IMG/VR virus record: IMGVR_UViG_3300031715_000003
Span: 30,225-94,224 of that record
Length of the DNA: 64,000 nt
From: a virus
Direction: 5' to 3' (one strand)
Below are positions 5,344 through 50,980 of this stretch, one piece after another. Every line of letters starts with the position of its first letter. Positions within the stretch are counted from its first letter, which is position 1. The position numbers and the translations under genes were made by a program. The notes beneath the pieces are model-generated. The model did no database searches. It was not told the DNA's origin and was given only the letters and a program-made list of their open reading frames with translations.

Positions 5344-5604
5344 TCAAAGCTGAACCAGAACGCGGTTAACGTCGTTCTCGAACGTGTAGACTTGGTCGCC
5401 GTTCTCCAGACCACCTTTCATGAGCGGTCCAGCCCATCCGAACTTCCGGCAGAGCGCGATGGCGGCTCCATCGTGGGCTTTGTCGGCGCTGTCGAACTGG
5501 CTGACCTTGACGGTGACGCGGTTCTTGGGATGGCCGGTTGTGGCGGAAACCGTTGATGGTTTGGTCACGTCGGCGCCGTGGTATCGGGTAATGATTGCTT
5601 TCAT
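5344..5604 (-). CDS. Conserved phage hypothetical protein
   Basis: MKAIITRYHG...AHDGAAIALCRKFGW; after leader E4. Confidence 0.75.
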   Translation of the reverse strand: MKAIITRYHGADVTKPSTVSATTGHPKNRVTVKVSQFDSADKAHDGAAIALCRKFGWAGPLMKGGLENGDQVYTFENDVNRVLVQL

Positions 5605-5611
5605 TTTGTGC

Positions 5612-5676
5612 GAGCCTCCTATTGCTCAGCCAGGGGAGAAGACCGAAAGCGTTCTCCCCTGAAGCGCACTAGGAAA
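5612..5676 (-). promoter_or_regulatory. Structured 5' leader element E4
   Basis: TTTCCTAGTGCGC-hairpin-TGAGCAATAGGAGGCTC. Confidence 0.8.
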
Positions 5677-6073
5677 CCACAGGGTCGGAGTTGAAGGACC
5701 AGCGCAGCTCGGTCACTTTGCCACGGACAAAACAACGGCCGTCCTGATGGCCTGAACGAGTGGAGCCGCAATTCAGGCATTTTTCCAGTTGCCGATCTCC
5801 CGACATGGCTTCTTGAGCTTCCATAGTCAGAACCAAATGCGTCACTCCAGGCAGTGCGATATCGGCCATTGGGCAGAACACCGAATAGCTGGCGGCGAGT
5901 TTCGTCCACCCGTCCGTTACGCTAGCGGCATCGGTGTATTCCACAAATGCATCCAGCCCATCTAACCGGATTCGCAGTTTCACCTTAAATCCGTTCTGGT
6001 CCGGAAGAATACCGTGGCCTAGCAGCCGTGCGCGACGGCTTGTGCCTTGCTCCACAAATTCCCTCAAGTTCAT
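5669..6073 (-). CDS. Hypothetical protein, first gene of leftward operon
   Basis: AATAGGAG SD in CAGGG/CCCTG hairpin; CLNC...H...C. Confidence 0.7.
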   Translation of the reverse strand: MNLREFVEQGTSRRARLLGHGILPDQNGFKVKLRIRLDGLDAFVEYTDAASVTDGWTKLAASYSVFCPMADIALPGVTHLVLTMEAQEAMSGDRQLEKCLNCGSTRSGHQDGRCFVRGKVTELRWSFNSDPVVS

Positions 6074-6101
6074 TGTTTCCAGGGCTCCTATTTCCCTGTG
6101 G

Positions 6102-6138
6102 AGATAAGATACCGCTTTTTTATCCGCAGTGTCAAGAT
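6102..6138 (-). promoter_or_regulatory. Leftward early promoter
   Basis: TTGACA-N18-TATCTT; near-duplicate of 103-136. Confidence 0.75.
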
Positions 6139-6205
6139 TTATTTTTGTTCTCCCCGCAAGTTTCAGAAAATGCTACCATAAAACCGAAAGCGTTCTCCCC
6201 TTAGT

Positions 6206-6820
6206 ATGTTGGTAGCACCAGAAAACGGGCGCATTCGAGGCAAGCGAGACATCCTCAGCAACCCAGAGCGGAAATTCGCGGATGCCATTGCTCAGGGCAA
6301 ATCGAAAGAGGACGCCCTCGCAGCCGCTGGCTACAGTTCCAAGTGCGGTAAATCCCAAGCCTGGAAACTCCTTTCGCGCAAGCGCGTGATCGACCGCATT
6401 GCGGAAACCAACATCGAAATTGCCCGCCAAGTGGCCGTCTACAGCGCGCGCTCCCTTAGCGAGATCCCAAACTTGGCTGAAGTCACCCTGAATAGAACCC
6501 GTATCGTGTCTTTCCTTGTGGTGGTGGCTCAGGAAGCAAGAAAAGCCGGGCAGTATGCATCAGCGATAACTGGAATGGTTCAAGCGGCTAAAGTTTCTGG
6601 CGCTTATGTTGAGCGAACAGAGCAAGCTGTTGAGTTTCAACTGCTTGAGAAGGCAGCGGCGGGCAACATGAGCGAGTTGACGGATGATCAGGTGGAGCGG
6701 ATGACGCGGGCGCTGGAAGTGATGGCGTGGGGCTCGGATAGAGCACGCATCGAAGCCGAAAGACGGAAACAAGGCATCATAGAAGCCAGCGCGGAAGCCG
6801 TTGAAACGAAAGATAGTTAG
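6206..6820 (+). CDS. terS: Terminase small subunit
   Basis: ERKFADAIAQG...AAAGYS...AWKLL HTH pattern of TerS N-termini; TGcTACCAT extended -10 upstream. Confidence 0.75.
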   Translation: MLVAPENGRIRGKRDILSNPERKFADAIAQGKSKEDALAAAGYSSKCGKSQAWKLLSRKRVIDRIAETNIEIARQVAVYSARSLSEIPNLAEVTLNRTRIVSFLVVVAQEARKAGQYASAITGMVQAAKVSGAYVERTEQAVEFQLLEKAAAGNMSELTDDQVERMTRALEVMAWGSDRARIEAERRKQGIIEASAEAVETKDS

Positions 6821-6864
6821 ATTTCCTACGAACAATTACCTTATTTCCTTGTATAATAGGCTGC

Positions 6865-7191
6865 ATGAGAAGCCATTTGTTACAAGAAACTCTGCCAGAG
6901 ATCAAGAAGCGCGGACGCCCACAGCGTATTGTTCGATGCGACTGTGGCGACCGAATGCCCTCGTTCGAGTTCCAGCACCACTATTCAGGCTGCGATGCGT
7001 TCTGGAAAAAGCACGGCGCCGTGGAGACGGATCAGGATATTTCGGTTCGTTGTTACGTGAAGCACGGAGTCAGCCTGATGAAGTGGTGCGAGGAGAACGT
7101 TGAAGGCTGGTCCAGCGCCTCATGGCAGGAGAAAGAGGAGGTTCTGGAAGCTGAGCACGCGCGGATCGATGAGATTCAGTTCTCGTTGTGA
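6865..7191 (+). CDS. Hypothetical protein
   Basis: TATAAT just upstream; CDC...H...C. Confidence 0.55.
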   Translation: MRSHLLQETLPEIKKRGRPQRIVRCDCGDRMPSFEFQHHYSGCDAFWKKHGAVETDQDISVRCYVKHGVSLMKWCEENVEGWSSASWQEKEEVLEAEHARIDEIQFSL

Positions 7192-7232
7192 GCCGGCTTG
7201 GATCGCGCGGCGGGCCTGGCTTCCGGCTTCGG

Positions 7233-7299
7233 CCCCTCCCTTCCTTCCCGACCACCCCACCCCACAGTACCCTCGCCCCCCCCACCCCCCACCCCCCCC
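7233..7299. repeat. C-tract cluster (G-quadruplex-forming potential on minus strand)
   Basis: Multiple C4-C8 runs in an intergenic gap. Confidence 0.8.
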
Positions 7300-7380
7300 T
7301 TCGATTTAATTCACCGATCAGCACGAAGTTGATTCTGGAAAGAAGGCCACCGGCCTAAGAATCAACGATATAAAATATAG

Positions 7381-7410
7381 TTGACACCGTGCTCAGTGCC
7401 GATGTAAACT
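7381..7410 (+). promoter_or_regulatory. Sigma70 promoter, probably leaderless transcript
   Basis: TTGACA-N18-TAAACT, ATG 7 nt after the -10. Confidence 0.7.
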
Positions 7411-7417
7411 TAACGCA

Positions 7418-7981
7418 ATGGAACGGAAGAGATATTGGGCGCATGTGGATGGAGCGGGGCAAGCGGGTACGGAGTTGATCACTTCAGGGTGGGGCGAATG
7501 GATGCCGGAGGCTGGCGACATCTTCACGATCGATGGAGTCTATGGAGTGAATCCTGATGGCGAAAGCTGGACAGGACGGCTCCAGTATTTTGCGATGCAG
7601 GAAAGTCCGAAGAAACTAGCCACTAATGGTAATGCGGTTTTGACCATCGCGCCCGCGATCATCCCAAGTGGGAAGTTCAGGACGGTAACGAACTCGCCGG
7701 CGAACGGGGCACGGATTCAACCGGTTGATCCTATACTCTTTGGAAGCGACCTCCCTAAGGGGAGAACGGTTTTGAAGACTAAGGAATTGAAGGAGTTAAG
7801 GAAAGCGCTGTCACAACAGCACGGGGCGATGGCCAAGATTGCTAGGTCGCTTGGGATCTCGAGGACGGCTGTATCGTTGGTGCTGAATGGGGTGAGCAAG
7901 AGCGAGAGGGTGTTGAAGGCTTGTAAGGCAGCGGTGAGGGGAGAACGCTTTGGAAACCAAGGTCCGCGGGTGGATAATTAA
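7418..7981 (+). CDS. Coat insertion-domain paralog fused to HTH domain
   Basis: N-half aligns with the phage's own coat (GDI...GVY.VNP...TG.LQ.F...TVTNSPANGA); C-half AKIARSLGISRTAVSLVLNG. Confidence 0.8.
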   Translation: MERKRYWAHVDGAGQAGTELITSGWGEWMPEAGDIFTIDGVYGVNPDGESWTGRLQYFAMQESPKKLATNGNAVLTIAPAIIPSGKFRTVTNSPANGARIQPVDPILFGSDLPKGRTVLKTKELKELRKALSQQHGAMAKIARSLGISRTAVSLVLNGVSKSERVLKACKAAVRGERFGNQGPRVDN

Positions 7982-8501
7982 GAACCGGTCGGATGGAACT
8001 GGATCGGCGAAGTTCAGTGAGTGCGAGCGCTATCGCTACACTCTGACCAGGAGTTTTGCGCCTGGGATAGTGATGCCGCGGCACGTGAACTTCATTATGC
8101 TGAACCCGTCGACCGCCGACCATAACCAGAACGATCCGACGGTGGAGCGGTGCGAGCGCCGGGCACGCGCTTGGAGATTTGACGGGCTGACGGTGACGAA
8201 TCTATTCGCGTGGAGGGCGACCGATCCGTCTGAACTACTCAAAGTGGCGGATCCCGTCGGGCCAGACAACGATTGGAATTTAGTGCACGAGGCCAAAATG
8301 GGAGCTGATTTAGTCGTATGCGGATGGGGCGGAAATAGCCGGTTCACACGCAACAGAGCCATCCATGTCGTTAGTCTCCTGTTGAATGCGGCCGTGCCGC
8401 TGACGTATTTGCGACTGTCGCAGAGGACTGGACAGCCTTGTCATCCTCTTTACTTGCCGTACTCCGAGTTGCCTAAAGTCTGGTGGGACGAGCGCGTCTA
8501 G
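7950..8501 (+). CDS. DUF1643 family protein
   Basis: RYRYTL, MLNPSTAD, DPT, NLFAWRATDP, GPDND, CGWG motifs. Confidence 0.9.
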   Translation: METKVRGWIIKNRSDGTGSAKFSECERYRYTLTRSFAPGIVMPRHVNFIMLNPSTADHNQNDPTVERCERRARAWRFDGLTVTNLFAWRATDPSELLKVADPVGPDNDWNLVHEAKMGADLVVCGWGGNSRFTRNRAIHVVSLLLNAAVPLTYLRLSQRTGQPCHPLYLPYSELPKVWWDERV

Positions 8502-8632
8502 GGAGAACGGATTTGGCGAACAACCGGCTTCATTTCACTTTGCGGCTCATTGGCGCTATTATGGCGGGCGGCATCACGGGAGTGGTGTTGGGCTGGCTGA
8601 CCTATCGAAACTGAGGGGAGAACGATAGCGAA

Positions 8633-9025
8633 ATGATCAAAAAAATGGAACAAGCGGACGGGCAGAGTTGCTGGAATAAGGCTCATGAGGAAGAAATGGT
8701 TTTCGTGCTGCTCGAGCGCGATCTAGCCGCCCCCTATGCGATACGGGAGTGGGCCAAGAAGCGGATAGAACTTGGCAAGAACACCACGGACGATCATCAG
8801 ATCAAAGAGGCGTTGGGCGCCGCGCTCTTCATGGAGAGACGAGATAAATCCGCAGAACTTTTGCCGAACGAGGCAAAACGACATACTTGGGAGTATGTCC
8901 ATATGTCCGACGGACGGCGCGTCAAAAGATGCAGCCTCTGCTGGTGCGCCTACGAGTTTGGATACGACTTGCCCTGTACAGCAAAGCCGAAAGAGCTGCT
9001 TAGGGAGAATGAACCAGGCTGTTGA
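8633..9025 (+). CDS. Conserved phage hypothetical protein
   Basis: VFVLLERDLAAPYAIREWA motif; GAGGGGAG SD. Confidence 0.7.
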   Translation: MIKKMEQADGQSCWNKAHEEEMVFVLLERDLAAPYAIREWAKKRIELGKNTTDDHQIKEALGAALFMERRDKSAELLPNEAKRHTWEYVHMSDGRRVKRCSLCWCAYEFGYDLPCTAKPKELLRENEPGC

Positions 9026-9051
9026 CGTACTCCCCCAAAGAGGCGCATAAT
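9022..9051 (+). promoter_or_regulatory. Promoter with dispersed motif overlapping -35
   Basis: TTGACG-N18-CATAAT; GTACTCCCC at 9027-9035. Confidence 0.6.
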
Positions 9052-9067
9052 CCAATCATCACGGGCC

Positions 9068-9280
9068 ATGACGGAAGAAGAAAAGCGCGCGCTTATTGCT
9101 GAGTTTCTTAAAGCGCTCTCCCCTGATGAGCGTGCACGTGTAGTGTGCGGGGCCAGCGGGGAGAACGCTTCTGAACCCGTTAAAGAAATCCAGAAAATTC
9201 CGGATCCGCGCTACCAATATAGACCACAGATCCCGGCTGACTACACGGTGCCGCCCAAGCCGGCAGGCTGGCTGAAATGA
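9068..9280 (+). CDS. Hypothetical protein
   Basis: ORF after promoter. Confidence 0.55.
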   Translation: MTEEEKRALIAEFLKALSPDERARVVCGASGENASEPVKEIQKIPDPRYQYRPQIPADYTVPPKPAGWLK

Positions 9281-9985
9281 AATGCTGCGACTGCGGTGCC
9301 ATCAACGTTCCGGGCAACCATCTCGGCACAGTACAGCGTTGCCGCCGCTGTCTCGACCGGCTACTGATCCGGACGCTTCGGCCCCACGTTCTTAAATCTC
9401 CGCTGCTGCGAAAATGGAACCAGGAGATTGAGGCAGTTCTGCCAAAACGGCTCTCCCGTGAAGAAAAGGAGGGGAGAGCGATATTGATCATGAAGGCTAG
9501 CAATGGAACCTGAACAAAGACTCCCTGCGATAAACGGGACCAATGCTGGAGAATGGAACCACTCTGAGGTAGAGTACAATGCCTGCCAGAGCACCAATGG
9601 ACCGATGAAGGATTGCCCGTCGTGCGGTGGGACTGGTAAGATTTCAGAAAGCGCACTACCATGAAAAGGCTCTTCTCCATCACCGGATGGGAGTACAAGT
9701 GGATCTTTGAAATTCGGCGTGGACCCTTCCGATCGTTTCACCTCATGATCAGACGTGAACTAAAGAGGTGGCTATGACGGTACTCCTCTCACGTCCTTAT
9801 CGTCCCGCCATGGCTTGTGAAGCGTGTTGCTTCGGGGGGAGTACGCACGCGGTCTGGTGCAGCAAAGCCCAAAGTTTCATGGAGGCGTGGGATGCTGTTA
9901 CGTGGCTCCCTGGATCGCCACGTGCCGCCAGAGAAGCCGCTATGCACCCGGCGTCTCACTCTCCACCGAAAGTGAACTCCCCCCA

Positions 9986-18884: not shown

Positions 18885-19114
18885 TGGCGAGCGAACTCCC
18901 CATCTGCAAGACCTGCGGAGCATCGCTTGATGGATGCCCTGTGGTCATTACTGAGGGGAACACGTTCCACAGATTCTGGACGGACTGCCGCAGAACCAAT
19001 GAACGTCTGAGGACCAGCGCAGCCGATCTCCTCGAAGAGAACCAGCAGTTGCGCGGACTCCTAAAGGCAGCGATAAAAACCGCAGAAGACAATGACCGCC
19101 GCAGGAAGCGATAG
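18884..19114 (+). CDS. Hypothetical Zn-finger/coiled-coil protein
   Basis: GTG overlapping stop; CKTC...FH...C. Confidence 0.55.
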   Translation: MASELPICKTCGASLDGCPVVITEGNTFHRFWTDCRRTNERLRTSAADLLEENQQLRGLLKAAIKTAEDNDRRRKR

Positions 19115-22099: not shown

Positions 22100-22396
22100 A
22101 TGATAACGCGAAGAGGACTGATTGCGGCAATCGCGGCGGTGTTTCTGCCGAGCCGCAAGCGTACTCCCCCAAATACGCTGTACTGGCGAAAGCCTATCCT
22201 GGTCCCCGTTACCCACGGCGACTGGCCATGGCTACAGCCGGTTTCAGAGCCAGAACTGGAGACTGAATCTGTCTGCCTTCTCACAAACCGCGCCATCGTC
22301 GGAGAAATGCTCGATGTCCTTCATCGGGACATAGTGATAGCCAAAAAGGTAAATCGCAGGTACGAACAGAGATTAGGAGCATCATGGCCAAGTTAA
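22100..22396 (+). CDS. Twin-arginine leader plus coat N-terminal fragment
   Basis: TRRGLIAA; 16/29 aa identical to coat residues 6-34; GGAGG SD. Confidence 0.7.
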   Translation: MITRRGLIAAIAAVFLPSRKRTPPNTLYWRKPILVPVTHGDWPWLQPVSEPELETESVCLLTNRAIVGEMLDVLHRDIVIAKKVNRRYEQRLGASWPS

Positions 22397-25183: not shown

Positions 25184-27418
25184 ATGGATCCAAACTCCGT
25201 CACGGCGATGTCGCCGGCGCAGGTCCATTCGTGGCCTGTGCCGATGAATCCCCAATCCTATTCGGGCCAAATTTTTACCGACGCCGACGCCGAAGACGCG
25301 TTCCTCAAAGAAGCGCTGGAGCGTTTCAAAACCGCCGAAGACGCCGAACGCAAGCTCCGCGAAGAGATGGAGGAAGACCATCGCTTTGCCTGCGGAACCC
25401 AGTGGCCCCAAACCATCCAAGCACAGCGCCATGCCCAGGATCGACCCACCCTCTCGATCAACCGCGTCCCTGAATTCGTCTCCCACGCCGTAAATAACCT
25501 TCGTCAGAACCGGCCGATGATCAAGATCGTCCCAGTGGGGGACGGTGCCACCACCGACATCGCCAACCTTCGGCAGGGGCTGGTCCGCCACATCCAGCAG
25601 AAATCCAAGGCGGAGACAGTTTTTGACGAAACGGCCCACATGATGTTCGAAATGGGGTTGTCGTGGATCCGCGTGGTGGCCGATTGGGCCAATCCTGAAT
25701 CTTTCGATCAGGAACTCTTTATCCGCTGGATCCGCAATCCCTTTACGGTCTACTGGGACCCGTTCTGCACGCAGCCGGACTGGTCCGACATGAAGTGGCT
25801 CTTCATCATCGAGGACCTTACCAAAGCGGAATTCCAGACACGCTTTGGGGAAGACGCACTAGCGATGAGTTGGCCCACCACGGAAAGCGGAAACTCCACT
25901 CCCTCGTGGTTCCCGGAGGGCAAGATTCGGATTGCCGAGTACTTCCGGGTCAAGATCGTGGAGGACAAGCTCTGCCAGCTTGAGGACAAGACCACGCGGC
26001 TATTCTCGGAACTCCCCAAAGGCATGTATTTCGTGGCCGAGGTAGAGAACGGCAAACCCGGCGAACTCGGACTTTTTGAAGAAGAGACGAAAGCGTATGT
26101 CGGCAAAGCTCGCGAGACCAATGTACCAGAGGTCTGGCACTACCTGATGAGCGCCCGCAAGGTGCTGTCGAAGACGAGGTGGTTAGGGTCGCGCATTCCC
26201 GTTCTCCCCTGCATTGGACACCAGACGGAATTTGAAGGCGAACTCAGCGTGGAGGGCATGGTGCGGTGGGCACGGGAACCGCAGCGCATGTACAACTACA
26301 TGTACTCCTCCTTTGTGGAAGCGGTGGCGCTTACGCCCAAGGCGCCGTTCATCGCGGAGGTGGATCAGATCCCGGATGGCAATGCAGAAGAGTGGGAGAA
26401 GGCGAACCAAAAGCCGGTTGCCGTCCTGCGATACAAGGCCAGGTCAGAAGGCGGCCAACTTCTTCCTCCCCCCATGCGGCAACCCGCCACTCCCGATATC
26501 GCGGCGTTTAGCGCCGGGCTGCAGATGTCGGATGCCAACCTCAAAGCCGTCTTCCGAATCTACGATGCTTCGCTTGGACAGCGGGGCCCCCAGGAGTCTG
26601 GGCTTGCGATCAATGCCCGCAAGGTGGAGTCCGATACCGGGATTTTCAACTGGGGCGATAACTTCCTGAGGTGCCTCCACAACGTCGGCTGGGTCCTGAA
26701 TGAACTCCTACCGTTCTACTACAACAGCCCGGGGAAGGTGATCCGCATCCTCCAGGATGATGACTCCCGCAAGGAAGTCGTAATGAACCAAGCATTCCTC
26801 GAACAGGGACAGAAAAGGATTTACGATCTCGAACAACAGGGGGAGTACGGAGTAGATATTTCGACCGGGCCATCCGTCCAGACGCTGCGGCAGGAGAAGG
26901 TCAAGGGCATGATCGAGTTTTTCCAACTGTACCCTGCAGGTCTCCAAGCCTGCGCCCATGTCCTGGTAAAAGAATTCGATTTCCCTGGAGCGGAGAAGAT
27001 TTCGGCGCAACTCGAGAAGCTTCTCCCACCGGCCCTGCAGACGCCCGATCCGGACTCCCCGCCTGATCCCAATCAACTTCAATCGCAGATCGGGATACTG
27101 ACGCAGCAGAACCAGCAACTATTGGCGGCCCTCAAGGAAGCGAGCGACAAATTCAACCTCGAAGCCATGAAGCAGTTGCACGCCGATTGGCGCAACCAGC
27201 AGACCCAGGAAGTGCAATTGGCACTGGGGCTGAGCCGCACGGGCTCCGAGGAAATCAAGTTTTTATTCGACCGGATGTTCAGCGAGATGGAGCAACTGCG
27301 CCAGCAAGTGGCGGCAGGCTCTCCGGGAACTCCGGCGACGCCGGGAGTGAACTCCCCTCCGGCGACTCCGACTTTACCTCCAACGGCGGGAGGGCAGACG
27401 CCGTCCGTGGGTCCCTGA
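25184..27418 (+). CDS. Portal protein, P22 gp1-like
   Basis: QWP...RPTLSINR...EPQRMYNY...PKAPF...ESGLAINAR...ISTGPS. Confidence 0.93.
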   Translation: MDPNSVTAMSPAQVHSWPVPMNPQSYSGQIFTDADAEDAFLKEALERFKTAEDAERKLREEMEEDHRFACGTQWPQTIQAQRHAQDRPTLSINRVPEFVSHAVNNLRQNRPMIKIVPVGDGATTDIANLRQGLVRHIQQKSKAETVFDETAHMMFEMGLSWIRVVADWANPESFDQELFIRWIRNPFTVYWDPFCTQPDWSDMKWLFIIEDLTKAEFQTRFGEDALAMSWPTTESGNSTPSWFPEGKIRIAEYFRVKIVEDKLCQLEDKTTRLFSELPKGMYFVAEVENGKPGELGLFEEETKAYVGKARETNVPEVWHYLMSARKVLSKTRWLGSRIPVLPCIGHQTEFEGELSVEGMVRWAREPQRMYNYMYSSFVEAVALTPKAPFIAEVDQIPDGNAEEWEKANQKPVAVLRYKARSEGGQLLPPPMRQPATPDIAAFSAGLQMSDANLKAVFRIYDASLGQRGPQESGLAINARKVESDTGIFNWGDNFLRCLHNVGWVLNELLPFYYNSPGKVIRILQDDDSRKEVVMNQAFLEQGQKRIYDLEQQGEYGVDISTGPSVQTLRQEKVKGMIEFFQLYPAGLQACAHVLVKEFDFPGAEKISAQLEKLLPPALQTPDPDSPPDPNQLQSQIGILTQQNQQLLAALKEASDKFNLEAMKQLHADWRNQQTQEVQLALGLSRTGSEEIKFLFDRMFSEMEQLRQQVAAGSPGTPATPGVNSPPATPTLPPTAGGQTPSVGP

Positions 27419-27440: not shown

Positions 27441-28706
27441 ATGGCAATCAGAATGGACTCGAACACTCAAGAGGATTTTCAGCAGGTCATCAAGCACTAC
27501 GGGTTGGAAAACCTACCCGAAGCGCAGGCGGCTTCCGAAGAGACTCCAGTGTCGGAACCACCCTCCGAATCCAAGGAAGAGCCTGGCGGGGAACCCGCTG
27601 GGGAGCCCAAGGATAAAAGCGCGGCCCCTCCGGAGGAGGTCAAAACAGAAACAACGCAGGAGGCTCCTCCTGTAGGGGAAACCGAAGACGAAAAGAAGAG
27701 AAAGAGTGGATGGGCCCGCAAGGTCGAGAAACTAACGGCCCAAGTAGATGCGATTCGTGAGCAACTAGAGAGCGAACGCGGCAACTCCCGTGGCCTCCAG
27801 GAACGCCTGGAGGAAGCGGAGCGACGACTTGCGGATGCGACGGGATCAGAACCGGAGCCTGAGGTAGAACAGGGCCCGGTTCGTCCCAAGCGTCCCAAGA
27901 CGCCGACCCTGGCAGAGCACGACGGCGATTACGAGAAGTGGAGTGCGGCTATGGTGCAGCACGATGTCCTCCTCGACAAATACGAGGAGGAGATGGAGCA
28001 GTACCGCACGCAAGTCACGGAACGGGCGATCGCTGAAAATAGTGCCAGGGCCGAACAACAACTCCGGGAAAACGAAATTGTCCGCAGTTTCGTGGATCGC
28101 CGGGATGCCGGAAAGAAGATTCTGGCCGAATCCTTGGATTCCGAGGAAGTCTCATGGGCCGAACTATTCGGGGATGGCAACGGCAATCCCGGGATTGTCC
28201 GCGACAGCTTCATGGACGCTCCTGCCGACAATCCGCAAGGTGGTGCGGCGGCGGCCAGGGACTGGATCAATCGCAAATCCAAGAATCCGGCTCTTTTGCT
28301 CTATCACTTCGGTCTTGATTCCATACACAGCGGCGCGGAGAACCAGCGCTTCCGCGATATGGATGCCTTCGATCAAATCGTCGAACTCAAGGCGCTAGAT
28401 GAGCGTTTGGGAGCGGAAATTGCGGCCAAGAAAAACGGCCGCACTGAAGCAGCCCCACCGCCAAGACAAGAGCGTACTCCCCAGCAGGAACCTCCCGCAA
28501 GAACACAACCACGTCCCGCCCACAGGGTACCGGAACCTCCGATCCCAACCGTCGGTGGCCACTCCATACGAGCGACCGCCGATTCAACGGCTCAACTGGC
28601 CAGACTCTACGAGGAAGGCCGTAAGACCGGGGATATGAGTGCCTACCGGCAAGCGCGGGAACAGCAGAGAGCTGCTGAAGTCGCGGCGGGGAGGATACGC
28701 CCTTAA
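27441..28706 (+). CDS. Scaffolding protein
   Basis: Acidic coiled coil between portal and coat; PEPPIPTVGG and DMSAYRQAR C-terminus. Confidence 0.85.
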   Translation: MAIRMDSNTQEDFQQVIKHYGLENLPEAQAASEETPVSEPPSESKEEPGGEPAGEPKDKSAAPPEEVKTETTQEAPPVGETEDEKKRKSGWARKVEKLTAQVDAIREQLESERGNSRGLQERLEEAERRLADATGSEPEPEVEQGPVRPKRPKTPTLAEHDGDYEKWSAAMVQHDVLLDKYEEEMEQYRTQVTERAIAENSARAEQQLRENEIVRSFVDRRDAGKKILAESLDSEEVSWAELFGDGNGNPGIVRDSFMDAPADNPQGGAAAARDWINRKSKNPALLLYHFGLDSIHSGAENQRFRDMDAFDQIVELKALDERLGAEIAAKKNGRTEAAPPPRQERTPQQEPPARTQPRPAHRVPEPPIPTVGGHSIRATADSTAQLARLYEEGRKTGDMSAYRQAREQQRAAEVAAGRIRP

Positions 28707-28732: not shown

Positions 28733-29983
28733 GTGGCTAATTCATTTCTCACCATCGGCATGGTCACATACGAAATGCTGATGGTGCTTCACAACCTTGT
28801 GGTGGCGGCCAAGAAAGCGAACCGCAACTACGAGAAACAATTCGCGCGAGTGGGCGCCAAGATCGGACAACAGGTCCAGATCCGCAAGCCCCCGCTCTAC
28901 ACCGTCACGGATGGTCCTACGTTTGTCGCGCAGGATTACGCCGAAACCAGCGTCCCCTTGACGCTCAACAAGCACAAACAGGTGGGCGTTGAGTTCCTCA
29001 ATGATGACCTCGTGCTCAGCATGGACGATTTCCGTGGTAGATTCCTCGAGCCCGCCATCGTTCCCCTTGCGAACATTGTCGACACCGACATCATGTCGCT
29101 CTACACCATGGCTTGGGAATTCACCGGCACCCCCGGCGTCACCCCGGCCCAAGACCTGCCGTTCCTAGACGCCAAAACCCTGATAACGGCCAATGCCGCC
29201 GGCGGAAGAATGTGGCCCATGATCGTCAGTTTGACCACTGACGCTCGCCTGTCCAGCGGCCTGGCTGGACGCTTCAACCCCCAAAAGGACATCTCGGGTC
29301 TGTACCTTGAAGGTTCGATGGGGCCCGCTCTGGGATGGGACTTCTACAAGACTCAGAACGTCCAGATCTTCACCACCGGAGCATGGTCGGCCAGCGTCCC
29401 TGCGACCGGCATCACGGTGAATCTCGCCGGACAAACCGGTTCCACCATCAACGTGACTGGGGCGACCGCTGGTGTCAACAACATCGGTCTCCTCGGCGAT
29501 ATCGTCCAGTTCGCTGGTGTCTACAAGGTCAACCCCGTAACGTACCTCAACACCGGGTTGCTCCAAAACTTCGTCCTCACGGCCAACGTAAATTCGGACG
29601 GCGGTGGCAACATCGCGCTCCCCATCAGCCCCCCGATCATCATCGTGGGCAAGGGCCAGACCGTAACGAACTCCCCGGCCAATGGCGCGCAGGTGCTGGT
29701 GTGGGGGAATCAGAACGTCGCGCAGGTGGCCAGCGTCACCTCCGCTCAGTGCATGGGATGGGCCTCGGAAGCCGTCACCATGGCGATGGCCGATCTCAAG
29801 GTCTTCGGTGAAGGCGAGGGCGTAAAGTGCACCCGCATGGCCGACGACGATCTCGGGATGAGCGTGCTGTATACACGCGGAGTGGACATTCGCGAATTCT
29901 CCGAGATTTCGCGCATGGACATCCTCTACGGCATGACCATGCCTCGTCCGGAACACGCCGTCAGGGTGGCGGCGATGTCGTAA
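28733..29983 (+). CDS. Major capsid protein, P22 gp5-like
   Basis: AKIGQQVQIRKP, LSMDDF, RMDILYG...RPE; insertion domain about aa 226-325. Confidence 0.93.
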   Translation: MANSFLTIGMVTYEMLMVLHNLVVAAKKANRNYEKQFARVGAKIGQQVQIRKPPLYTVTDGPTFVAQDYAETSVPLTLNKHKQVGVEFLNDDLVLSMDDFRGRFLEPAIVPLANIVDTDIMSLYTMAWEFTGTPGVTPAQDLPFLDAKTLITANAAGGRMWPMIVSLTTDARLSSGLAGRFNPQKDISGLYLEGSMGPALGWDFYKTQNVQIFTTGAWSASVPATGITVNLAGQTGSTINVTGATAGVNNIGLLGDIVQFAGVYKVNPVTYLNTGLLQNFVLTANVNSDGGGNIALPISPPIIIVGKGQTVTNSPANGAQVLVWGNQNVAQVASVTSAQCMGWASEAVTMAMADLKVFGEGEGVKCTRMADDDLGMSVLYTRGVDIREFSEISRMDILYGMTMPRPEHAVRVAAMS

Positions 29984-30016: not shown

Positions 30017-30886
30017 ATGAAAACCTTTAGACTGATCGCTCTCTTGTCTCTGGCCAGCGCCATTGGCTCTGCCCAATTGAACGTGACATCGACCACGCTC
30101 GCGGCTGCCGTTACGTCGGCCAGTTGTCCGGCGGCTGGCTGCACCGTGACGCTTACCAGCGCCACTGGTGTCGTGGCCCAAGGTCCCAACAACCAAATCA
30201 ATACCGTGCTCTACGTGGATCGCGAACTGATGTGGGTCACCAACTTCATCAGCGGCACCACTTACGGAGTGCAACGCGGCAAAAACCAAACGCGCCCGTG
30301 GACTCACTCCAGTGGCGCGACCGTCTACCTCGGACCTCCCACCAACAACTTCCTCGCTAACAATGGGACTTCGGCGGAGACTTGGGGGAGTTGCGTGGCG
30401 ACCAACGAATACAGTCTCCCCAAGATCTATGTCACAACCGGAGACATCTTCCAGTGCTACAACGGTGCGAATGGAGGGAATTGGTTCTTGGTCGGGAGTG
30501 GCACCGGGGTGACGGTAGGGAAGTCTCTTTCGGCCTTCTGCACCGGAACGGTCGGTAGCGCCGAGACTGAATTCCTCAACGACGCGGCCTGCTCTGGAGC
30601 CACCGCAAACCTCGCGAAAAACGTAGTCGTAACCGGTGGAACGCTGGCAAACCTTAGGGTTTACAGCACTGCGGTCGCCGTCGGAGGAACCAACAAGGAC
30701 GTGATGACCGTTTTCAAGAACGGCAGCGCCACCACCATCACCTGTACGATTGCGGCTTCGGCCGCGACGTGCTCTGACTCGGGTCATTCCGTCATGACGG
30801 TACCGGGTGACGTCATATCGTTCCAATTCGTGACCGCCACTTCCGATACCGCCGCCAATATGGTGGCCTCAGTCGGTCTGTACTGA
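30017..30886 (+). CDS. Putative capsid decoration protein with Sec signal peptide
   Basis: MKTFRLIALLSLASAIGSA-Q; TTLAAAVT, VDRELM, VQRG; Cys pairs. Confidence 0.75.
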   Translation: MKTFRLIALLSLASAIGSAQLNVTSTTLAAAVTSASCPAAGCTVTLTSATGVVAQGPNNQINTVLYVDRELMWVTNFISGTTYGVQRGKNQTRPWTHSSGATVYLGPPTNNFLANNGTSAETWGSCVATNEYSLPKIYVTTGDIFQCYNGANGGNWFLVGSGTGVTVGKSLSAFCTGTVGSAETEFLNDAACSGATANLAKNVVVTGGTLANLRVYSTAVAVGGTNKDVMTVFKNGSATTITCTIAASAATCSDSGHSVMTVPGDVISFQFVTATSDTAANMVASVGLY

Positions 30887-50416: not shown

Positions 50417-50980
50417 ATGATTTCGGCAAAATGCCATCTTGAATCGATTTCGCAGTACTCCCAGAGCAAAGCTCATCGAGTTCCGCGCAATCAAAATGAA
50501 TCTTATGACCAATGGGAAGAGCGGACGTGGCGCGAACGCCTGCATGTGTCCGAGGATGGCCACATTTTTATTCCTCCCACTGCCATCAAAAACGCGCTCT
50601 CGGAGGCGGCTCAGTACCTCTCGATGAAGATTCCGGGGAAGCGCAACGCCACCTACACCAAGCGCTTCGTCTCGGGGGTTCTGGTGGCCGATCCCATAAC
50701 GCTGCCGATCACGGTCGATGAGGTCAAGTGCGAATGGCTTTTCCTGCCGGCCGATGGGAAGCGCGGTTCTGGAACGCGCGTCAACAAATGCCTGCCCCTG
50801 ATTGATCGGTGGTCGGGCGATGTACAGGTATTCATTCTGGACGACGAGATCAGCAAGGAGGTCTTCGAGAAGCACATGGATGTTGCGGGATCCTTGATCG
50901 GAGTTGGCCGGTTCCGCCCCTCGAAGAATGGATACTACGGTCGGTTCAAAGCTACCGTTAGGTCCTGGGAGTCGCAGTGA
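50417..50980 (+). CDS. Stand-alone Cas7/RAMP-like protein
   Basis: N-terminal strand CHLESISQY, FIPPTAIKNALSEAA (cf. RAMP IPgSslKGalR), C-terminal Gly loop GSLIGVGRFRPSKNGYYGRF; AAGGAG SD. Confidence 0.7.
   Translation: MISAKCHLESISQYSQSKAHRVPRNQNESYDQWEERTWRERLHVSEDGHIFIPPTAIKNALSEAAQYLSMKIPGKRNATYTKRFVSGVLVADPITLPITVDEVKCEWLFLPADGKRGSGTRVNKCLPLIDRWSGDVQVFILDDEISKEVFEKHMDVAGSLIGVGRFRPSKNGYYGRFKATVRSWESQ

Follow-up and report, generated by a model that had tools for sequence, protein, structure and literature searches.

The stretch of DNA analysed here (the window, 64 kb in length) comprises bases 30225-94224 of a 94,224-bp IMG/VR virus record, an uncultured phage judged 98% complete. Genes left of approximately 6.1 kb point leftward, and from position 6206 on all genes point rightward; this rightward part contains the genes for the terminase large subunit (at 19114, +), the portal (at 25184, +), a scaffold candidate (27441-28706), and a P22-type coat protein (28733-29983, +; 416 aa; PF11651 E 6.5e-22, phrog_283 7e-62), with tail genes next. 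The subject of this study is the open reading frame (ORF) at 7418-7981 (+), the first gene past a 226-bp spacer, which is intact, begins with ATG, and specifies 187 aa laid out as a copy of the coat's insertion domain (I-domain), a linker, and a probable helix-turn-helix (HTH) unit. Its end overlaps by 32 nt with a DUF1643 gene (7950-8501, +; PF07799 E 2e-36) that starts with TTG, and no possible start other than TTG 7950 precedes the conserved N-terminus of DUF1643. The window contains no large repeats, a search of Rfam gave no credible match, and a second 187-aa ORF, at 50417, is unrelated to the one at 7418-7981.

Several features of the surrounding gene order may be recorded here in their own right. 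The early-region gene at 6206-6820 (+) encodes a 204-aa protein whose N-terminus resembles a small terminase HTH (phrog_641 2.4e-8, Terminase_2 0.019), and it sits 13 kb away from the large terminase gene at 19114. Homologues of the DUF1643 protein (40-55% identity) are common in IMG/VR phages, where we found 44 loci with neighbourhoods that always differ. Directly after the coat gene, in the usual position of a decoration protein, the product of 30017-30886 (+) starts with a Sec-type signal-like leader (MKTFRLIALLSLASAIGSAQ), an unexpected feature in a virion protein, given that assembly takes place in the cytoplasm.

The spacer ahead of the ORF includes a C-rich tract (approximately 7236-7305; runs of 4-8 C), and just 5' of the promoter described below lies a perfect 9-bp inverted repeat (7328-7366, +), with arms GTTGATTCT and AGAATCAAC 21 nt apart and an inner GGCC-ACC-GGCC palindrome. 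This repeat occurs once, with 0 occurrences expected by chance, and the rest of the window shows no enrichment of its half-site (17 matches against 11.8 ± 3.5 expected). The inverted repeat could be an operator or a hairpin, and together the tract and the repeat may form a putative terminator-like or operator element; given its place beside the promoter, the repeat would also be the obvious candidate target of the HTH.

A sigma-70-type promoter, TTGACA-18-TAAACT, occupies 7381-7410 (+) with 10/12 matches and ranks best of 8 promoter-like sites in the surrounding 4 kb (5500-9500), where 2.0 are expected. Its -10 element ends at 7410, 7 nt before ATG 7418, with no Shine-Dalgarno (SD) sequence between; by comparison, most confident genes of this phage carry a GGAG(A)-type SD. 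A stop codon lies 11 codons upstream of ATG 7418, and no in-frame start codon falls between the two. Because the -10 element ends so close to the ATG and an SD is absent, the mRNA of the ORF is predicted to be leaderless or nearly so, its start being placed by promoter geometry. This agrees with the first-pass annotation, made from the sequence of the window by inspection, which had assigned the ORF a strong promoter of leaderless type.

The same annotation had aligned the N-terminal half of the ORF with the phage's own coat, and this correspondence is borne out in both sequence and fold. The I-domain unit (7418-7771, +; residues 1-118) is a free-standing and diverged copy of the I-domain of P22-type coats. 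In a BLASTP comparison, residues 10-100 match coat residues 229-321 (nt approximately 29417-29695) with 39/94 identities (41%) and an E-value of 2e-13. Searching 1.84 billion cluster representatives exhaustively with phmmer yielded 329 hits, nearly all of them coats of approximately 400 aa that match at coat residues ~225-320. When modelled by AlphaFold2 from a 129-sequence alignment (mean pLDDT 79 for the whole ORF), residues 10-100 form a beta-barrel with pLDDT >90; the barrel is six-stranded, spans residues ~8-102, and is followed by a disordered linker at 110-117. A model built from the single sequence was set aside (pLDDT 44).

Superposition of the modelled barrel by VIA places it among solved I-domains, with rmsd values of 1.8-2.6 Å over 87-101 residues overall. 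The P22 coat (8i1v_B, chain range from 224) gives Z 12.6 at 1.9 Å over 93 residues, CUS-3 (8skg, residues 225-340) Z 11.9 at 27% identity, and Sf6 (7sp4) Z 10.6 at 2.6 Å over 101 residues, followed by the isolated I-domains 6mnt (Z 9.2, 2.6 Å, 94 residues) and 2m5s (Z 8.9, 2.1 Å, 87 residues); the next tier below the solved I-domains is the T5 Dit protein, at Z ~8. Foldseek likewise returned 6mnt as its top hit, and a profile of the small relatives discussed below finds 6mnt at E 4.8e-8 and residues 258-337 of 8skg at E 2.3e-7. A search of BFVD retrieved coats, three UniParc entries of ~126-132 aa (the size of I-domain constructs), and Dit-like proteins, while the ESM Atlas held no usable match. 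Sequence and fold thus both identify the N-terminal half of the ORF as an I-domain. Since the ORF starts 9 residues before the domain and lacks the HK97 part, we class this half as a homologue of the I-domain and not as a coat protein.

One might suppose that only the HTH half is a gene, and that the I-domain stretch is a decaying captured coat fragment now serving as a 5' untranslated leader. Such an arrangement would account for an ATG at 7418 that lacks an SD, for a strong SD ahead of the internal TTG at 7772 (see below), and for a fusion found nowhere else. Nevertheless, we regard it as very improbable. All 118 codons of 7418-7771 are open in frame 0, with 5 stops in frame +1 and 5 in frame +2. 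Only frame 0 has gene-like codon usage, at +0.24 log-odds per codon (confident genes 0.35 ± 0.14), and the off-frames never exceed -0.08. The near-invariant residues of the family (Q15, G17, P46, P79, and P94) are kept, the fold is modelled with the high confidence given above, and the promoter is placed so that transcription would begin at the ATG, an arrangement shared with known leaderless genes. Against the coat gene, identity by codon position is 0.54/0.62/0.39, with 43% of residues identical, and similarity at the DNA level is confined to one 68-nt patch. Since third (synonymous) positions are saturated while the protein has been kept, the stretch represents an old paralogue and not a recent copy of the coat gene. 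By these sequence measures, the I-domain half is coding and old, conserved at the protein level, and not a decaying copy.

Downstream of the linker, the HTH unit (7772-7981, +; residues 119-187, 69 aa) has its own SD and a TTG start at 7772. The best family scores all fall short of curated thresholds: HTH_8 (PF02954) reaches 21.0 bits against a cut-off of 22, and TIGR04111 reaches 23.5 bits against a cut-off of 34 (E 3.9e-5; profile positions 3-42 aligned with residues 7-46 of the 69-aa unit), while phrog_925, a family without a cut-off, matches at E 3.9e-5 (profile positions 4-47 aligned with residues 122-165 of the long ORF). AlphaFold2 places helices at 121-145, 149-156, and 162-173 with pLDDT 55-75, and the fold-search lists for the ORF are filled by the I-domain. 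The HTH half found no match among shorter proteins and only matches at E 0.2-0.3 among GenBank phages. Residues ~120-175 are probably an HTH, one that scores below every curated family cut-off, in keeping with the HTH that the first-pass annotation placed in frame after the I-domain. Most likely this unit is a small early transcription regulator that would bind DNA.

The manner in which the two halves are joined proves central to the interpretation of the locus. At the junction (7759-7774, +; GGGGAGAACGG-TTTT-GAAG), an SD of the form GGGGAG(AAC), with GGGGAG at 7759-7764, precedes by 7 nt an in-frame TTG (7772-7774) that is codon 119, and a run of four T spans 7770-7773. The internal SD and TTG noted in the first-pass annotation are thus present, and the same layout, GGGGAGAACG-(2-3 nt)-TTG, recurs at the DUF1643 start at 7950. 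We accordingly predict that the 69-aa HTH is probably made separately as well, by initiation at TTG 7772. If the T-run were one base shorter, the I-domain frame would end ...GRTV-TGA after 118 aa, with the TGA overlapping the TTG in a TTGA stop/start overlap; if it were one base longer, the I-domain frame would stop after 121 aa. Both the three-T and the five-T variants hence give two genes, and the four-T version alone fuses the halves. Programmed frameshifting or slippage at the run was judged unlikely, by inference, since four Ts make too short a run and a canonical heptamer is missing.

The position of the junction coincides with the natural ends of both units. Stand-alone relatives of the I-domain end at the point that corresponds to the linker of our protein (...FGNVLPKS* in P0149, ...PPPKGL* in P0161, and ...ARLHPLDAGGANLSA* in P0045), where the present ORF reads on as ...LPKGRTV|L119 (...ARIQPVDPILFGSDLPKGRTV-L119). 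Residues 1-118 fit the stand-alone family in length and end point, and they have no stop codon of their own in the assembled sequence. In the same manner, small HTH families, aligned over their whole length, begin at approximately residue 122, that is, from their own N-termini.

The GGGGAGAAC motif, one copy of which lies at the junction (7759), has 31 copies in the 64 kb (11 on the + strand, 20 on the - strand), where by our own estimate ~0.5 copies would be expected for a random 9-mer; examples are 7759, 7938, 8615, and 9158 (+) and 5659, 20754, and 30929 (-). Some copies are SD-like sites ahead of start codons. We rejected the motif as a plain ribosome binding site, as it is found on both strands and some copies are antisense to late genes or inside hairpins (GGGGAGAACGCTTTCGGTCTTCTCCCC at 5659-).

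To what extent the I-domain half has a history separate from that of the coat can be judged from its relatives. Among the phmmer hits and the results of a profile search we found rare stand-alone I-domain mini-proteins, about 14 clusters in all, most of them from short contigs. Complete, M-initiated members with little beyond the domain are P0073, P0089, P0094, P0137, P0149, P0045, and P0161, and others (P0007, P0160, P0063, P0096, P0106, P0053, and P0108) carry a twin-arginine-type leader in front. The leader of P0063 scores 27 bits with TIGR01409, above the cut-off of 16.7, those of the others being sub-threshold or unmatched, and no Pfam family is matched by any stand-alone relative. The ORF at 7418-7981 lacks a twin-arginine leader (S/T-R-R-x-F-L), starting with MERKRYW (MERKRYWAHVDG); as it has no such leader, and an HTH at its other end instead, its product should stay cytoplasmic. 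Two of the leader-bearing proteins, P0096 and P0106 (from metagenome contigs), combine a Tat leader and an I-domain with the coat's extreme C-terminal strand (...EFACRIVG and ...ELTCRVLG), and thereby look like "mini-coats" without the whole HK97 body.

The genomic setting of one stand-alone gene is seen in contig Ga0182016_10062263 (positions 305-2809), where a P0089-cluster I-domain gene of 115 aa closes a set of four small genes with the same orientation, in the order HNH-like, VWA-like (…VLVCDDSGSMSD…), zinc-ribbon-like, and I-domain. The start of the I-domain gene overlaps the preceding stop, the gene is not behind a coat N-terminus, and it recurs as six near-identical variants. This was the one true stand-alone locus in a metagenome scan with P0153, which otherwise returned six coats. 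Further searches added little to the family: a profile of the stand-alones gained only two new members; scans of IMG/VR with the ORF itself, its upstream neighbour, P0094, and P0007 recovered no relatives; and a clade-specific pattern applied to IMG/VR gave, among its best 80 loci, coats in every case and no stand-alone (72 are at least 350 aa, and the six shorter than 300 aa are coats cut by contig ends). In GenBank phages the N-terminal half was matched by coats only.

We built a careful maximum-likelihood tree from 82 domain segments and 101 columns. In this tree the I-domain half groups with P0089, P0007, and P0073 (UFBoot 97, SH-aLRT 86), seven stand-alones form a clade at 83/89, and the phage's own coat falls among other coats. 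Branches of the stand-alones are long (0.7-2.3, compared with ~0.2-0.6), and their clustering with the I-domain half may partly reflect long-branch attraction. Forcing the I-domain half and its own coat together costs 64.7 lnL and is not rejected by the AU test (p 0.155). A "quick" tree and the topology tests based on it were discarded, as the constrained tree came out 66 lnL better, indicating a badly searched tree. On the careful tree, then, the I-domain half groups with the rare stand-alone mini-proteins and not with its own coat, a placement to be read with the long branches and the p-AU of 0.155 in mind.

Each half of the ORF can thus be recognized as a small unit that elsewhere exists separately, and the combination of the two appears to be confined to this phage. 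No second protein with both halves was found in the 1.84 billion cluster representatives, IMG/VR, or GenBank phages, so that the search for the same fusion in other phages proposed in the first-pass annotation came back empty. A search for homologues of near-equal length recovered, besides the ORF, a single coat fragment; synteny anchored on DUF1643 (44 loci) revealed no HTH or I-domain nearby, and synteny anchored on the upstream neighbour no comparable arrangement. That annotation had anticipated that a fusion both unique and degenerate would tell against it: the fusion is indeed unique, but it is not degenerate.

The account that we lean toward, with confidence only slightly above the midpoint, is that 7418-7981 is a real, intact early gene formed by a lineage-specific and probably recent fusion of two small-gene units that are separate elsewhere, and that it probably yields a 187-aa and a 69-aa product. 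We call the fusion lineage-specific and probably recent because the four-T run alone joins the frames, and one T fewer or more restores two genes. A rival account is that the join may be an artefact, an extra T at 7770-7773 having merged two real genes (an I-domain gene of ~118 aa and a 69-aa HTH gene with a TTGA overlap) in the assembled sequence. Removal of one T yields exactly a canonical 4-nt stop/start overlap together with an I-domain of family-typical length, the stand-alone relatives stop at the junction, the HTH unit comes with an SD and start of its own, and the fusion is absent from all other proteins searched. On the other hand, four-base homopolymers are rarely mis-assembled from short reads, and two contigs, which may derive from the same reads, carry the identical 187-aa protein. 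We therefore favour a real fusion, given the shortness of the homopolymer and the record of the protein on two contigs, and we consider the artefact unlikely while still giving it real weight. With its 187-aa frame uninterrupted as assembled and recorded identically on two contigs, the fused protein could be real and possibly functional. Even so, a real fusion through the T-run says nothing on selection, and nothing shows that the joining of the halves is a selected design.

The possibility of such a design nevertheless merits consideration: the I-domain would bind coat or procapsids and thereby gate or localise the HTH, with the 69-aa HTH as a possible competitor, coupling assembly to transcription or DNA handling. 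The frame is intact, the promoter is strong, both halves are modelled as folded domains joined by a flexible linker, and pairs of long and short in-frame isoforms are a known regulatory device. Furthermore, I-domains are established to make inter-subunit contacts in P22-type capsids (Rizzo et al. 2014, cited in PMC7602432). Speaking against it, no second example emerged from any of the collections searched, the close I-domain relatives have no HTH (and some bear export-type twin-arginine leaders, unfit for a cytoplasmic, DNA-linked role), and the gene is early whereas the coat is late. Nothing beyond the open frame supports a capsid-sensing regulator in particular, and we think a selected fusion of this kind decidedly unlikely. 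The first-pass annotation had read the ORF as a regulator that senses or joins capsid assembly, as a tether of DNA to procapsids, or as a decoy for capsid-sensing host immunity; as explanations of the fusion, all of these are weakened, because the fusion is unique among the 1.84 billion representatives, because a single base separates it from a two-gene layout, and because the relatives of the I-domain are stand-alone small genes without an HTH.

Taking up again the lineage-specific fusion that we prefer, expression of the locus might proceed as follows. Host RNA polymerase would start at the strong promoter to give a leaderless mRNA, from which initiation at ATG 7418 would produce the 187-aa protein with I-domain, linker, and HTH, and initiation at the internal SD and TTG would produce the 69-aa HTH alone. 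The most likely role of the HTH would be that of a small early regulator of transcription. The I-domain piece, like its stand-alone relatives, would most likely be a soluble mimic of an exposed coat surface domain, that is, a protein-binding module, and would probably bind something that normally contacts that domain, which could be the phage's own coat, a sensor of the host, or the coat of a rival phage.

A more specific proposal for the function of the I-domain unit, fused or not, is that it serves as an early mimic of the coat domain that blocks host capsid sensors or poisons the assembly of rival P22-like phages. This concerns function and is compatible with a lineage-specific fusion. It would be in keeping with the early promoter and with the long branches of a fast-evolving stand-alone family, and the 41% identity to the phage's own coat would limit self-interference. 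The same phage also has a second coat-piece gene (22100-22396, +; 98 aa), in whose product a twin-arginine-like leader (MITRRGLIAAIAAVFLPS) stands ahead of a coat N-arm copy (50% identity between residues 60-94 and coat residues 5-42, E 7e-7); the coat gene, this gene, and the ORF at 7418-7981 are exactly the three coat-like places in the phage record. However, the ORF matches none of the PADLOC models, a mimic might trigger a sensor instead of blocking it, and the twin-arginine leaders of the relatives point to the envelope and not to cytoplasmic sensors. We also found no paper on free-standing I-domains or capsid-fragment decoys in a body of literature that lacked the two main I-domain papers. 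On balance we treat an anti-defence or competition role as a minority possibility.

Whatever the role of the fused protein, free-standing I-domain genes do occur in intact form, some with export-type leaders and some without, and one of them is here joined to a probable DNA-binding unit. They offer a handle on the origin of the I-domain (were stand-alone genes its donors, or are they derived from the coat?) and on the purpose of separate "capsid-piece" mini-genes in uncultured phages. Should the fusion be functional, it would be a first case of a capsid module used to build a regulator, and should it be a selected design, the phage would have a transcription factor whose activity reports on capsid assembly. 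An accidental fusion would instead provide a snapshot of a one-base change at a stop/start overlap creating a two-domain protein.

Comparison with known systems helps to place both halves of the ORF. In P22-like coats the I-domain is a folding nucleus and capsid stabiliser, and in P22 gp5 it covers residues ~223-345 (PDB 2M5S, 5UU5, 8I1V); other I-domain structures are those of CUS-3 (6MNT, 8SKG) and Sf6 (6MPO, 5L35), and the Pfam family of these coats is PF11651. The N-terminal half of the ORF shares their six-stranded beta-barrel fold, and its sequence homology to them is clear. To our knowledge, descriptions of the I-domain of P22-like coats all concern an insertion within the coat protein, and we know of no account of its origin. 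In contrast to these described cases, which are insertions in the A-domain of an HK97-fold coat, the I-domain is here the N-terminal unit of a separate early gene; it is also shorter than that of P22 (~95 versus 123 residues, about 28 fewer) and is followed by an HTH.

Residues 119-187 align almost from the first profile position with TIGR04111 (the BcepMu gp16 family), phrog_925, and the Fis-type HTH_8, and they resemble small phage HTH proteins in size (69 aa, compared with profiles of 55-67 aa) and in having three helices with a turn and recognition helix (…IARSLGISRTAVSLVLNG…). Unlike these small stand-alone families, the unit scores below cut-off, has no close relatives, and is also the C-terminus of a longer protein. 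With regard to expression, the predicted start resembles that of lambda cI, whose transcript from PRM is a leaderless phage regulator mRNA: the -10 element ends 7 nt before the ATG, with no SD. In-frame nested genes with an internal start are likewise familiar from Tn5 Tnp/Inh, T7 gene 4A/4B, and lambda S107/S105. In those cases the arrangement is conserved among relatives, whereas that of 7418-7981 is unique; as in those cases, an internal SD and in-frame start are predicted to give a long and a short product that share a C-terminus.
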